From Escherichia coli (GTDB taxonomy: Bacteria > Pseudomonadota > Gammaproteobacteria > Enterobacterales > Enterobacteriaceae): a stretch of DNA of 64,000 bases. The DNA lies in the NCBI GenBank assembly GCA_029351405.1, contig GCA_029351405.1_4841.1; one strand, given 5' to 3'. The notes beneath the pieces are model-generated. The model was not told where the DNA came from, did no database searches, and saw only the letters and a list, made by a program, of their open reading frames with translations. A program made the position numbers and the translations under genes. Below are positions 4,465-64,000 of the stretch, in pieces. The first letter of the stretch is position 1. Each line of letters begins with the position of its first letter.

Positions 4465-4503
4465 CACAGTGTATTCCTTCAGTTCACAATGTAGGGCTAA
4501 ATT

Positions 4504-4833
4504 TTAACCCGAAACTTTATTTTGAAATCCGACAAAGTCCTGGGCAATTCCCCGGCAATACATCAGGTCTTTCTTCGTTTGTGCACTGTTGTCAGCCGCA
4601 GTCAGCATCATGGGAAGGTCCAGCGCATTCTCTATCTGATCAACACTGAACAGATCAAGGCGCTTCAGCTCTCCCTCGAAGTCAGACAGTAGGATAGATG
4701 TGTCTTTGTCATCTGGGTGGAACTGCTGATACGTCTCCATCCATGCCACACATGTGTTCAGTTTGGACGGTGGCGCAGCGTTTACACACCCGGCTATCAG
4801 TACCAACAAGAGCAGGATTTTACATTTCATCAC
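4504..4833 (-). CDS. predicted lipoprotein
   Basis: 109 aa; N-terminus MMKCKILLLLVLIAGC has a hydrophobic core plus lipobox L-I-A-G-C. Confidence 0.55.
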   Translation of the reverse strand: MMKCKILLLLVLIAGCVNAAPPSKLNTCVAWMETYQQFHPDDKDTSILLSDFEGELKRLDLFSVDQIENALDLPMMLTAADNSAQTKKDLMYCRGIAQDFVGFQNKVSG

Positions 4834-5595: not shown

Positions 5596-6045
5596 TCAGA
5601 AACGGGTATCGCTGACCGTTCTGTATCGCACACCCTGAAACTGTTTAGCGAGTTTAACAAATTCCATCGCTGGTAAATCAACTTTGTAGACCTTCATGCG
5701 CTGTTTGCCGTCCATGTTCAACGCAGCGACAAATCGGTGTGAGCCGTCAACAACGTAATTGTCAGAAGACACCCAAACCCGACCCATAGGTTTCTTATTT
5801 CTGATGTTCTTCATGATCTTCCAGACCTTCATCTTGTTGATTTCGTTCTGGGTAAGACGAAGCATTTTGATGGGCACTTGCGCAGCATCTATGGACACGC
5901 CGTTGTCTTCAAGATATTTGTGAAAATCTTCTTGTTTGTCGGCATCGATTTGCGGCATAGAAGAACGAGAAAGCCCGAGGTTCCCAACAGGAATCCTCAG
6001 GCCGTTAATGATGTTCAACCAGTCAATAAAAGATGTAAGGAACAT
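5596..6045 (-). CDS. ParB-N-like (DGxHR motif) domain protein
   Basis: 149 aa; VVDGSHRFVAA resembles the ParB/sulfiredoxin-fold DGxHR motif; GAGGTG RBS. Confidence 0.4.
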   Translation of the reverse strand: MFLTSFIDWLNIINGLRIPVGNLGLSRSSMPQIDADKQEDFHKYLEDNGVSIDAAQVPIKMLRLTQNEINKMKVWKIMKNIRNKKPMGRVWVSSDNYVVDGSHRFVAALNMDGKQRMKVYKVDLPAMEFVKLAKQFQGVRYRTVSDTRF

Positions 6046-62655: not shown

Positions 62656-63225
62656 ATGCACATTAACACAGCAATCATGAAACACATTATTCCTTTGTTA
62701 GCAAAATACGAAGGGGAACGCGCCACGAATATCCCTTTTGAAACAATCACCGATGAAGTAAAACGCCTGACAGGTAAAAGTATCAATTTCCGTCGCGTTA
62801 TTGAATCTGCGTTAGAGTTGGCCCGTTCTGATTTACGAAATCCAACATTTTCATTTAACATTGACATAACTTCTTCACTTCGACAAGAATTGGAAGAATC
62901 ATCACAAGCACGGCGCGATCGCTTCCGTCATTTATATGTTCGTAACGAATTCTCTGAAGGTCGTATTGGTATGAAACTGGAGTCTATTCGTTCTGACATT
63001 TGCTTCACTGTCAACTACGTTTTAGAGCCAGAAAGTGGGCGCATTTATTTTGGCGCGATTATCGGTTTCTATGGGAACTCTATTAATGGTTGGGCTGAAC
63101 GCGTTGGATTAAAAGAAACCCAGAACACTCATTCCACACCTTCTACCCATTATATGACGCATGAAGCTGCTGGCGAATATGTTTACCTTCTGCGTCGTAT
63201 TGTGAAGTTAGAAGTGTTAAAATAA
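62656..63225 (+). CDS. hypothetical protein (189 aa), plus-strand
   Basis: ATG with GAGG RBS after a 314-bp intergenic region with hairpins. Confidence 0.5.
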   Translation: MHINTAIMKHIIPLLAKYEGERATNIPFETITDEVKRLTGKSINFRRVIESALELARSDLRNPTFSFNIDITSSLRQELEESSQARRDRFRHLYVRNEFSEGRIGMKLESIRSDICFTVNYVLEPESGRIYFGAIIGFYGNSINGWAERVGLKETQNTHSTPSTHYMTHEAAGEYVYLLRRIVKLEVLK

Positions 63226-63282
63226 CGCTTTATTCAATAAATAATTGCAGTAAAGTTAGTTGCATGGAAGGGAGGGAACACT

Positions 63283-63429
63283 ATGTTTTACATGATGTTA
63301 CTCCTCATCCTCCTGATCGGGATTACCTTTACTCTCCTGGGTCTACCCGATCAGTCCGGTAAACAGTCGCCCACTTCGGCGCATCCGGTTTTGTGCGAAG
63401 GTTCGCCCGCACTGCTGTGGACAGTGTAG
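63283..63429 (+). CDS. small hydrophobic protein (48 aa)
   Basis: Not in the ORF track; ATG with GGGAGGGAA RBS; MFYMMLLLILLIGITFTLLGL membrane-like N-terminus. Confidence 0.35.
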   Translation: MFYMMLLLILLIGITFTLLGLPDQSGKQSPTSAHPVLCEGSPALLWTV

Positions 63430-63631
63430 CTCAAAGAGGAGAGGACTTTTCAAATTAGCTGGGCTGTAGTAAAGTATTAAACACGAGGCGAATAGCGCGG
63501 TGGGAGTAGGGCTGGAACCCGAAACCAGGAAAGCCCAGTCTCAGGGCACCGTGACGAATAGAGGCGTAATATCAACCTCGCTGGTGTCGGTGGACGCACT
63601 TGACCGTCGGAGAACGAAACTCCCTGTTGTA

Positions 63632-63721
63632 GCGTGATTAGCTCAGAATCAGAGAGCACCCCGTTGGCAAGTCGACACCAACGTATAAGGGGAGGTCGGG
63701 GGCGCTAATCTCCATCACGCC
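63632..63721 (+). other. tRNA-like element (not a canonical tRNA)
   Basis: 7-bp acceptor-like pairing GCGTGAT/ATCACGC, U8, D-arm-like TAGCTCAGAATCAGAGAGC, but no canonical anticodon or T arm. Confidence 0.2.
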
Positions 63722-64000
63722 GACAACATTATGAGTCTTCCATAGAGGGTTCATAATGTTGCGTCAAAGGGCAACAAGGTTCCTGTTGGTTGAATTAACT
63801 TGATTCATAGTTCCTACTGATCTTCCCGGATTCGAAGGAGCACCAACAGGCGAGGCCGGATGCGTAAGTTCCGGTAAATCGATGGTGACACCCTCGCCAA
63901 CAAAAATAAAAGGTTTTATCAATAACGGGTTACAAAGTATAGTTAACCCACTGAAGCGAAAAGCTGTTTGGACATTAGACAAACACTTCGATGTGAACCC

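Follow-up and report, generated by a model that had tools for sequence, protein, structure and literature searches.

Structured RNAs predicted in the gene-free island of ViI-like phages: an element with a tRNA-shaped core and a tmRNA-like tag RNA

Introduction

What is carried by a stretch of phage DNA in which no protein seems to be encoded? The question is raised by positions 63430-64000 at the right edge of the window (the whole stretch of DNA that was analysed, 64,000 nucleotides (nt) long), where no convincing open reading frame (ORF) had been seen for about 570 nt, and where the original prediction had placed a 90-nt segment resembling a transfer RNA (tRNA), belonging either to a structured small RNA or to a degenerate tRNA. 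Here we argue that this stretch is probably the beginning of an island of RNA genes that reaches as far as a tRNA cluster, and that it opens with two elements: a structured non-coding RNA of about 395 nt on the plus strand (approximately 63482-63876), hereafter RNA X, and then a second RNA, hereafter the tag RNA, whose first part lies at 63950-64000 and which in relatives carries a short frame of the kind found in transfer-messenger RNA (tmRNA).

The window is DNA of an Ackermannviridae phage, as judged by its matches to ViI-like genomes. Its last 800 nt matched 251 phage records, all of them ViI-like Ackermannviridae bar a few with evidently mislabelled hosts, the closest being Enterobacter phage fGh-Ecl02 (98%) and Escherichia phage RPN242; with the latter (locus L001) the window shares 97.7% identity over its last 4 kb, in an alignment that reaches base 64000. 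The relatives share one gene order, in which minus-strand baseplate genes are followed by a plus-strand gene for a 189-amino-acid (aa) protein and a small membrane-type ORF, then by an ORF-poor stretch and lastly by the tRNA cluster; this arrangement is the same in every relative, the ORF-poor stretch running for 1.8-3.2 kb up to tRNA-Met or the tRNA cluster. Set against these genomes, 63430-64000 is the left (5′) end of a gene-free region of about 2 kb upstream of the tRNA cluster, a region that was remarked upon without explanation in the CBA120 genome paper (Kutter et al., 2011; PMC3184105). In the literature on Ackermannviridae we found no report of tmRNA or of non-coding RNAs, tmRNA being mentioned only where ARAGORN is cited.

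Results

The stretch 63430-64000 is non-coding and holds no conserved ORF. After the 48-aa ORF that ends at 63429, it contains only ORFs of 45 aa on the plus strand and of 60, 38 and 72 aa on the minus strand. Three of these (45, 60 and 38 aa), the longest three inside 63477-63754, are each intact in just one of 24 distinct relatives and broken by frameshifts and stops elsewhere, and none of the ORFs compared with Pfam, the 72-aa one on the minus strand (63764-63982) among them, had a match. The lack of a convincing ORF is thereby borne out, as is the presence of a Shine-Dalgarno (SD)-like element, AGGAGAGGA at 63437-63445, with no start codon downstream. A plus-strand ORF that had been proposed to begin at 63882 and run off the window did not survive comparison: its start is deleted in two relatives (L003 and L009), and it lies across the 5′ hairpin of the tmRNA-like RNA as well as a promoter-like site that is conserved.

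If not for its coding capacity, for what is the stretch conserved? Conservation of the 90-nt tRNA-like segment extends to 269 phage records, and in a comparison with Klebsiella phage Magnus the flanking coding sequences are 73-74% identical at the DNA level, the core of RNA X (63604-63775) 89.5%, the segment after it (63776-63876) 82%, and the segment that holds the promoter-like site P3 and the 5′ part of the tag RNA (63903-64000) 93%. All the window-type relatives that were examined share one block of 26 nt (63604-63629) without any change, and insertions and deletions fall in loops, such as the D-like loop in Klebsiella phages. A covariance model built on 63604-63775, and used to search divergent genomes of the family as well as candidate loci, matched Erwinia phage Bue1 at 46 bits (E ~1e-9), Serratia phage 3M at 36 bits and the IMG/VR genome L033 at 48 bits; in Bue1 and 3M the neighbouring 189-aa protein is only 36-41% identical to that of the window. 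The model found no match in Vibrio phage K474 or Dickeya phage LIMEstone1, nor in any of the five loci (four from metagenomes and one from a metagenome-assembled genome) that hold a 19-mer common to three lineages, and a scan of IMG/VR with the invariant 26-mer returned only ViI-like genomes of Ackermannviridae size. These alignments show a constraint on the stretch that exceeds that on its protein-coding neighbours, and a predicted fold that spans the breadth of the enterobacterial Ackermannviridae.

The fold is one that compensatory change appears to have upheld. When 21 distinct sequences are aligned under guidance of the model, standard pairs fill 98.5% of cells, as against 42-54% when the partners are slid by one to three columns, and 19 of the 46 pairs have changed on both sides, a count reached by none of 500 shuffles (shuffle mean 4.3). 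On an alignment that was not fitted to the model (MAFFT, window-type sequences), RNAalifold returned the same cloverleaf and the same long hairpin C, with seven compensated pairs. We regard it as highly probable that RNA X is a non-coding RNA with a defined fold; of the two readings first offered for the tRNA-like segment, the structured RNA stands, with its conserved and covarying helices, and the degenerate tRNA falls, given strong purifying and compensatory selection across genera. We assign RNA X to the plus strand because several of its helices use G·U pairs, which would be C·A mismatches on the opposite strand; the promoter-like sites and the tRNA genes likewise lie on the plus strand. 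The thermodynamic z-score of the minimum free energy (MFE) was tried as a guide to strand and set aside as uninformative (−2.4 on the plus strand against −2.7 on the minus strand).

At the heart of RNA X lies a tRNA-shaped four-way junction (63632-63720), which emerges from a sub-threshold match to the Rfam tRNA family, from the RNAalifold cloverleaf and from covariation. Its acceptor-like helix, GCGTGAT/ATCACGC, is a perfect 7 base pairs (bp), all of which covary in the model-guided alignment, and is followed by U8 and A9 and then by a 4-bp D-like stem (GCTC/GAGC). The arm in the anticodon position has 4 and 5 bp with a 6-nt bulge between them, three of the four outer and two of the five inner pairs covarying; the variable region is AGGTC, and the stem in the T position has 4 bp and an 8-nt loop, GCGCUAAU, that is not of the TΨC kind. 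The original prediction had described the perfect stem, U8, the D-arm-like hairpin and the lack of a canonical anticodon or T arm correctly, and at the right coordinates.

How much of a tRNA is this? ARAGORN called no tRNA or tmRNA anywhere in the window, and a genuine tRNA or tmRNA there was rejected. Rfam gave nothing at the gathering score across the whole window, the tRNA family alone matching below it (RF00005, 23.0 bits where 29 is the gathering score; E = 0.034 in a search of 801 nt), with a 20-nt insertion at the position of the anticodon loop, so that neither a tRNA finder nor the Rfam gathering score picks the element out. Any Rfam family for the region was likewise rejected, matches to miRNA and snoRNA families in relatives being long hairpins and spurious. 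The 7-bp stem has no free discriminator base or CCA, the bases after it being CGAC; where a tRNA has a 5-bp anticodon stem and a 7-nt loop, RNA X has a 10-nt loop, CAAGUCGACA; and at the elbow it has neither G18 G19 nor the T-loop UUCRANY, the D-loop AGAAUCAGA being devoid of GG and taking up insertions of 20-45 nt in Klebsiella phages. The tRNA core is there, with U8, A14, G15 with C48, A21 and a 5-nt variable region, and its segments UAGCUCAGA..GAGAGC and AGGUC are nearly unchanged in all lineages, including Bue1 and 3M. Judged by its sequence, RNA X fails tRNA membership on four of six defining features. The acceptor-like helix moreover continues into its flanks, by five pairs (UGUUG/CGACA) in the window; in 3M it measures 8 bp plus flanks and in Bue1 13 unbroken pairs, and the lineages have neither an acceptor base pair nor a discriminator base in common; since the closing helix runs past 7 bp and carries no conserved acceptor or discriminator, the junction would be an internal structural module and not the end of a chargeable tRNA.

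A further peculiarity of the junction is the 10-nt loop of the arm in the anticodon position, CAAGTCGACA at 63668-63677, which contains the palindrome GTCGAC (63671-63676). The loop reads GUCGAC in the window, in Klebsiella phages and in Bue1, GUUGAC in a Salmonella phage (L015), where it can pair with itself through G·U, UCAUGA in 3M and GUCAUGAC in L033, so that self-complementarity is kept through four sequence versions. We treat this as a lead, for it is the signature expected of a loop-loop ("kissing") contact between two copies, and it suggests that RNA X may act as a dimer.

On its 5′ side the junction is preceded by several smaller domains. The first is a three-way junction (63496-63553) with helix P1 (CGCGGTG/CACCGTG), helix P2 with a nested GGG/CCC, and helix P3, (G)CCC-AGTCTCA-GGG(C); phages have swapped its sequence on several occasions, and every variant can be drawn by hand in the same topology. 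Of seven variants that were folded, four (L001, L002, Bue1 and 3M) take this topology at the MFE; that of the window takes another. There follow a hairpin with a GACG loop, GTC..GTG-GACG-CAC..GAC (63586-63604), in which covariation is visible by eye, the inner stem being GUG/CAC in the window, GGG/CCC in Bue1 and GG/CC in 3M, with an outer C-G changed to U-A in Klebsiella phages; and the hairpin GGAG-AACGAAA-CTCC (63609-63623), three of whose four pairs have changed on both sides and whose loop ACGAAA is invariant in all lineages while the stem varies (GAGAU-ACGAAAC-AUCUC in Bue1). The helix that extends the acceptor-like stem is formed by TGTTG (63625-63629) and CGACA (63721-63725, with no CCA), three of its five pairs covarying; on window-type sequences alone, RNAalifold offers CAAAGGG (63765-63771) as an alternative partner for TGTTG.

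On the 3′ side stand the long hairpin C (ACATTATGA..TCATAATGT with an upper stem, 63726-63759), nearly invariant in window-type phages and with 99.6% of cells paired, and a 3′ domain (63782-63874) drawn by RNAalifold. The latter consists of a long-range stem, CCTGTTGG (63782-89) with CCAACAGG (63843-50), which encloses an inner hairpin, TCTTC-CCGGATTC-GAAGG, and of a terminal hairpin, CCGGA-TGCGTAAG-TTCCGG (63856-63874). At the position of hairpin C there is a different, 17-bp hairpin in Bue1 and none in 3M. The 3′ domain is 82-100% identical in all window-type relatives and absent in 3M; its covariation is weak, consisting of G·U changes only.

Beyond RNA X lies a hot spot for insertions and deletions (63877-63902), where all that is left in the window is a fused deletion remnant, AATCGATGGTGACACCCTCGCCAACA, from a small tRNA-like element without an anticodon arm. 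The full element is present in phages Det7 (L002) and T765 (L008), with an acceptor stem, a D arm and a canonical T arm (GUUCGAUUC); at this place L003 and L009 are empty, L007 and L010 have an insert of about 250 nt, and L033 has another tRNA-like element. A second tRNA-like element within the window, with GGCGAGG (63849-55) and CCUCGCC (63892-98) as its acceptor stem, was considered and rejected, because Det7 and T765 show that the CCUCGCC strand belongs to the separate small element deleted in the window; L003 and L009 are without this 3′ strand.

Two promoter-like sites frame these elements. The first, P2 (TTTTCA, a 17-nt spacer and TAAAGT; 63447-63475, plus strand), was found by motif search and alignment and precedes RNA X; its −10 region is GCAGTATAGTA in relatives, and in Bue1 an equivalent site (TTCAATAA..GCAGTATAGTT) directly precedes the RNA X homologue. 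The SD-like element AGGAGAGGA sits directly upstream of its −35 hexamer, is nearly invariant over 24 relatives (one A/G position), and forms a small hairpin according to RNAalifold, GAGGAG being paired with CUUUUC. The second site, P3 (TTATCA, a 16-nt spacer and TATAGT; 63916-63943), was reported by a promoter scan and is kept in every lineage, Dickeya and Vibrio phages included. In the motif search these two were the only plus-strand occurrences of the P2/P3 motif in the 64-kb window.

The second RNA would begin shortly after P3, and the window breaks off within it: 63950-64000 (plus strand) holds the leader and the 5′ half of a hairpin, H1 (GCTGTTT, 63963-63969). In RPN242 the continuation consists of H1, a pseudoknot (PK1), the tag frame and a second pseudoknot (PK2), the tag being AAAUAACU GCU AAU GAU UCC GAA GUU CUG AUG GCG GCG UAA, which reads ANDSEVLMAA. 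Among the relatives' loci there are nine variants of this tag, all of ten codons and without a start codon: ANDSEVLMAA, ANDNTFLAVA, ANDDVVLMAA, ANDNAFLMAA, ANDNAYLMVA, ANDNAYLAVA, ANDNEFKVAA, ANEEMYLAVA and ANDDLMLMAA. Where sequences were parsed by hand, the tag is preceded by an in-frame stop five to eight codons upstream, and two alleles for ANDNTFLAVA encode the same peptide with three synonymous differences. Ten codons, no start codon, a stop upstream and synonymous change together indicate selection on the tag peptide.

How closely, then, does the tag RNA resemble a tmRNA? In relatives its mRNA-like part has what is expected of one, namely a resume codon without a start codon, a short tag and a hydrophobic end closed by AA. 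The pseudoknots are also in place, PK1 directly upstream of the resume codon and PK2 directly after the stop; stem 2 of PK1 is CUUUG/CAAAG, UUAUG/CAUAA or ACUUU/AAAGU according to lineage, PK2 covaries in both stems, and on an unfitted MAFFT alignment 87.9% of cells in the pseudoknot helices are paired, as against 43-58% when slid, with seven of 15 pairs changed on both sides. The tRNA-like domain (an acceptor with G3·U70, a T arm, CCA and a helix 2 link) was not found. The 5′ strand GCUGUUU pairs locally with AAACAG and closes a hairpin, for which Bue1 has CCUGA/UCAGG, changed on both sides; Rfam alignments place H1 on the basal helices of permuted tmRNA, with the tRNA-like segment of about 100 nt collapsed to 4-18 nt. 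Bue1 alone has a weak candidate for such a domain (ARAGORN at 85% thresholds), with a C2·U71 mismatch and no G3·U70. In the relatives the family tmRNA_permuted (RF04321) scores 19-31 bits (19.5-31.2) against a gathering score of 47, and beta_tmRNA (RF01850) 17.7 against 84; ARAGORN at default settings finds no tmRNA in them, and calls one only at thresholds lowered to 80-90%, where false positives abound. By its sequence and predicted fold, the tag RNA is best described as a putative tmRNA-derived RNA of the permuted type, without a recognisable tRNA-like domain.

The T arm and CCA nearest after the tag belong to another element, a tRNA-like RNA of about 127 nt with a covarying 5′ strand of its own. 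This self-contained RNA (L001 6014-6141; also L003, L005, L007-L009 and L016-L025) starts with GCCGUUA..., and has a 7-bp arm with an elaborated loop of 46 nt, a hairpin GGUCAGCGCUGGCC, a T arm with UUCGACU and the end AAACGGC-U-CCA, the CCA being encoded; L009 shows a compensatory change of U5-A68 to C-G, ARAGORN makes no call, and L028 and L034 lack the element. A one-piece tmRNA with GCUGUUU/AAACGGC-U-CCA as its acceptor, called by ARAGORN at 80% thresholds, was therefore rejected as the fold of the tag RNA, because the T arm and CCA are those of the 127-nt element and GCUGUUU pairs locally in all lineages. Three tRNA-like acceptor stems adjoining tag RNAs have a reversed wobble, U3·G70: GGUGAGG/CCUCGCC in Det7 (L002 ~4760-4830), GGUAUGU/..CAUGCC in an N4-like phage (L042 1673-1752) and, possibly, GCUGUUU/AAACGGC (L006 4530/4982). 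None has G3·U70, the pair that is read by alanyl-tRNA synthetase.

The tag module is not confined to Ackermannviridae. We observed ANDDVVLMAA in an N4-like Gamaleyavirus (L042 1482-1752), with an atypical 'tRNA-Cys' immediately after it; ANEEMYLAVA in the Klebsiella siphophage ZX4 (L043 1460-1660), directly preceded by a near-consensus promoter, TTGACA-17-TAGATT; and ANDDLMLMAA in Cronobacter phage CS01 of the Drexlerviridae (L044 1490-1670). Within Ackermannviridae, genes for HNH homing endonucleases are inserted into the tag-RNA gene at the conserved GGTTTTCGTTYTC (L005 1466-2056; L010 4850-5410), which in L005 flanks the insert on both sides. LIMEstone1 (L004 3590-4100) retains P3 together with some 40 nt of leader and hairpin from the tag RNA, and has lost the tag as well as RNA X; the only residue of RNA X is a 17-nt remnant, GAATTAACTTGATTCAT, and a different small ORF follows the 189-aa gene.

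The loop ACGAAA(C) of RNA X (63613-63619) is complementary to an invariant UUUCGU of the tag RNA (e.g. L001 5826-5840), and also resembles the strand AGAAAC of the latter's pseudoknot. A regulatory contact between loop and strand is possible on these letters, its 6 bp lying within chance expectation. Base pairing between the two RNAs at large was rejected, as the top duplexes differ between lineages and only the 6-bp ACGAAA/UUUCGU recurs, without significance.

Farther along the island of the relatives, which is a hot spot for HNH endonuclease genes, insertions and deletions, tRNA-like modules abut one another. Its distal part holds a hairpin of some 110 nt, very long and all but perfect (L006 5603-5713; L001 6757-6855; L002 5834-5945), the cause of spurious Rfam miRNA matches. 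Another block of conserved non-coding sequence, CCCGTATCCCTGTATGGTCAAG...GGAAAAATAAACGCC, precedes the first tRNA (L006 ~5717-5770; L004 ~4487-4545; L031 ~5981-6035), and can still be made out in the Dickeya and Vibrio phages of the family, which have neither RNA X nor tag.

Upstream of the island, the conserved 189-aa protein (62656-63225) matches Pfam Radical_SAM only below threshold (16.6 bits against a cut-off of 29.5), and diverges much faster than the adjoining RNA genes. Within 63226-63429, the 48-aa ORF has a third copy of the promoter-like motif upstream (TTATTCAATAA..GCAGTAAAGT), a strong SD (GGAAGGGAGGGA) and a hydrophobic N-terminus; phages of Klebsiella, Serratia and Erwinia keep its SD and membrane-helix character and vary in the length and the C-terminal half.

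Discussion

What might these RNAs do? On balance, we favour the view that the 570-nt stretch is the start of an RNA-gene island that reaches the tRNA cluster, with RNA X first and the tag RNA second, and that these two begin to explain the long-noted empty 2 kb of the ViI-like phages. Host polymerase would transcribe an RNA X of about 400 nt from the sigma-70-type promoter-like site at 63447-63475, and the transcript would fold into the 5′ three-way junction, the two small hairpins whose GACG and ACGAAA loops do not vary, the tRNA-shaped junction, the long hairpin and the 3′ domain. The junction would keep the tRNA core (U8, A14, G15 with C48, A21, the 5-nt variable region, and coaxial stacks of acceptor on T and of D on anticodon arm) and would be devoid of the features of decoding, having a closing helix of 12-13 bp buried in its flanks, no free 3′ end, no anticodon loop and no GG/TΨC elbow. 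As the likeliest mechanism, we posit that RNA X could be a stable tRNA mimic which occupies a partner that binds tRNA, be it the ribosome, a tRNA-processing or tRNA-modifying enzyme, or a defence nuclease directed at tRNA; it would probably pair with a second copy through its palindromic loop, and act alongside the neighbouring RNAs directed at translation. The second promoter-like site (63916-63943) would start the tag RNA, whose first 50 nt or so end the window. A core that is kept while every feature of charging and decoding is lost is what would be expected if the RNA filled a tRNA-binding site and were not put to use in it, and the remaining content of the island (a tag template, tRNA-like RNAs ending in CCA, and tRNAs), directed at translation, would fit such a role. 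Even so, we offer the mimic as a tentative idea, and would not be surprised to see it fail.

Several points weigh against this picture of two RNAs. P2 agrees with the consensus at only eight of 12 positions and lies under the threshold of a generic promoter scanner, which accordingly did not report it, and the standing of P2 and P3 as promoters, the ends of the RNAs and their stability are all inferred. There is no terminator-like site on the plus strand from P2 to the end of the tRNA cluster (L006), so that RNA X may be a segment of a long precursor and not a separate RNA. The covariation counts were taken on an alignment that had been fitted to the model, which favours the structure; three divergent lineages contribute most of the double-sided changes; the MFE z-score, besides being modest, differs little between the strands; and the palindrome's conservation comes down to some two independent events. 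As 3M has neither hairpin C nor the 3′ domain, these parts would be dispensable. As for the tag, the window ends before it, and its presence in this phage is extrapolated from RPN242; moreover, the tag RNA is found without RNA X in N4-like, T1-like (Drexlerviridae) and other phages, and the two RNAs are therefore not obligate partners.

The missing terminator leads to the rival explanation that fares best, although we consider it unlikely: the island, from promoter-like sites P1/P2 to the terminator after the tRNA cluster, would be transcribed as one or a few long precursors, in which RNA X is no functional unit and its junction serves as punctuation for RNase P, RNase E or 3′ exonucleases, releasing a tRNA-like RNA of about 90 nt (to which CCA would then be added) and flanking small RNAs. 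The abutting tRNA-like modules downstream and the 7-bp helix stacked on a T-like stem would suit such processing, and the tRNA cluster of phage T4 does yield two stable non-tRNA RNAs through RNase P. However, the helix exceeds 7 bp and in Bue1 runs unbroken for 13, no acceptor identity or discriminator is conserved and no CCA encoded, the GG/TΨC elbow that RNase P reads is absent, and mere punctuation needs no strongly conserved loops such as ACGAAA, AGUCUCA and the palindrome.

Could RNA X instead supply in trans the tRNA-like half that the tag RNA appears to lack? The two would then form a new kind of two-piece tmRNA, a split trans-translation system. The order of a tRNA-like RNA followed by a coding RNA is that of permuted tmRNA genes and is found in all Ackermannviridae lineages examined; LIMEstone1 has lost both partners together; the ACGAAA loop finds its complement in the tag RNA; and a tag frame apparently under selection at the peptide level has no tRNA-like domain in cis. 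Yet the junction of RNA X offers no free CCA end, no G3·U70 and no conserved acceptor identity, the tag RNA thrives in the N4-like, Drexlerviridae and other phages without it, and 6 bp of complementarity is no more than chance allows between RNAs as long as these, the other top duplexes varying by lineage. We find this pairing improbable. Only slightly better, and still a long shot, is the broader notion of a third architecture of trans-translation, in which a tag template without a tRNA-like domain works either with separate tRNA-shaped RNAs (RNA X and the CCA-ending elements) or by hijacking the charged tmRNA-SmpB of the host. Were it true, a split arrangement would deliver a tag to ribosomes without G3·U70 or alanine charging, for the takeover of host translation or for rescue, and would join the one-piece and the permuted two-piece tmRNAs as a third form, with a tag module spread over N4-like, T1-like and other enterobacterial phages.

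That the locus is a decaying pseudo-tRNA, or the functionless remains of a former tRNA array, is largely refuted and very improbable: the sub-threshold Rfam match, the adjoining tRNA cluster of variable content and the true deletion remnants at 63877-63902 do invite the thought, but the element is better conserved than the neighbouring protein genes, is recognisable where the neighbouring protein is 36-41% identical, has 19 compensated pairs and confines its insertions to loops. Least credible of all is an element acting as DNA (an origin of replication, a packaging site or a recombination hot spot) or protein coding in an unusual frame, for which the hot spot of HNH genes and indels and the near-equal folding of both strands might speak, against strand-specific G·U pairs, ORFs broken in 23 of 24 relatives and no Pfam match.

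If the island is indeed one of RNA genes, what follows? Biocontrol and therapy make wide use of the ViI-like phages (Kuttervirus, Agtrevirus, Taipeivirus and their kin) as candidates, and those who engineer them should neither delete this locus nor treat it as a 'neutral' insertion site. A gap in annotation would become a set of hypotheses, in which decoy-shaped phage RNAs act on tRNA-binding machinery and ribosomes use a tag template that has no tRNA-like domain of its own, and annotation pipelines for phages would gain two new RNA models. Neither the standard tools (ARAGORN, Rfam thresholds) nor a survey made in 2014 (PMC4131195) reported such a tag template in viral genomes.

Comparison with known systems

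With class I tRNA (RF00005), RNA X shares the 7-bp helix stacked on a stem in the T position, U8 and A9, the D stem GCUC/GAGC with A14, G15 and A21, the 5-nt variable region AGGUC with C48, the overall cloverleaf and a place beside genuine phage tRNA genes. Unlike a tRNA, it scores below threshold, its closing helix is at least five pairs longer, it has no CCA and no GG in the D-loop, its interrupted 9-bp arm ends in a palindromic loop, the 8-nt loop in the T position is without UUCRA, and no acceptor identity is conserved.

Among RNAs that are not tRNAs, bacterial YrlA Y RNAs have a tRNA-like module with no decoding role, in which the canonical elbow of D-loop and T-loop is kept, and phage T4 has the stable RNAs known as species 1 and 2 (rnaC and rnaD), non-tRNA RNAs in or beside its tRNA cluster. 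Compared by description, RNA X resembles the T4 RNAs in lying near a tRNA cluster and YrlA in having a tRNA-like module without decoding; unlike YrlA it is without the D-loop/T-loop elbow, and it gave no Rfam match to a Y RNA. GOLLD and ROOL are large, ornate, phage-associated non-coding RNAs of unknown function, typically beside tRNA genes, for which self-assembly has been reported. RNA X is likewise phage-borne and next to tRNA genes, the island lying directly upstream of the tRNA cluster in all relatives, and its conserved self-complementary loop may hint at a further likeness; it differs in being smaller (about 400 nt), restricted to Ackermannviridae and built around a tRNA-shaped core, and in matching no family model: neither the GOLLD/ROOL nor the Y RNA models matched at E up to 10 in 63200-64000 or in L006 3990-5910.

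For the tag RNA, the closest relative among known systems would be the permuted two-piece tmRNA of alpha- and beta-proteobacteria (RF04321 and RF01850). Both have the basal helices, a pseudoknot directly upstream of a GCN resume codon in an A-rich context, a start-less tag of ten codons of the form ANDxxxxxAA and a pseudoknot after the stop; in the tag RNA, by contrast, the tRNA-like domain of about 100 nt (T arm, acceptor strands, CCA and G3·U70) is replaced by 4-40 nt, the scores lie below the gathering thresholds, and the hosts of the element are virulent enterobacterial phages of several families. An exhaustive survey in 2014 found viral ssrA only in mycobacteriophages and Bacillus phage G (PMC4131195), and among the former the mycobacteriophage DS6A carries a tmRNA fragment that consists of the tRNA-like domain only (Hudson et al. 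2014, PMC4131195). There, as here, a phage would hold part of a tmRNA, and the two parts are each other's converse: DS6A keeps the tRNA-like domain without a tag, and the tag RNA would keep the tag without the tRNA-like domain.

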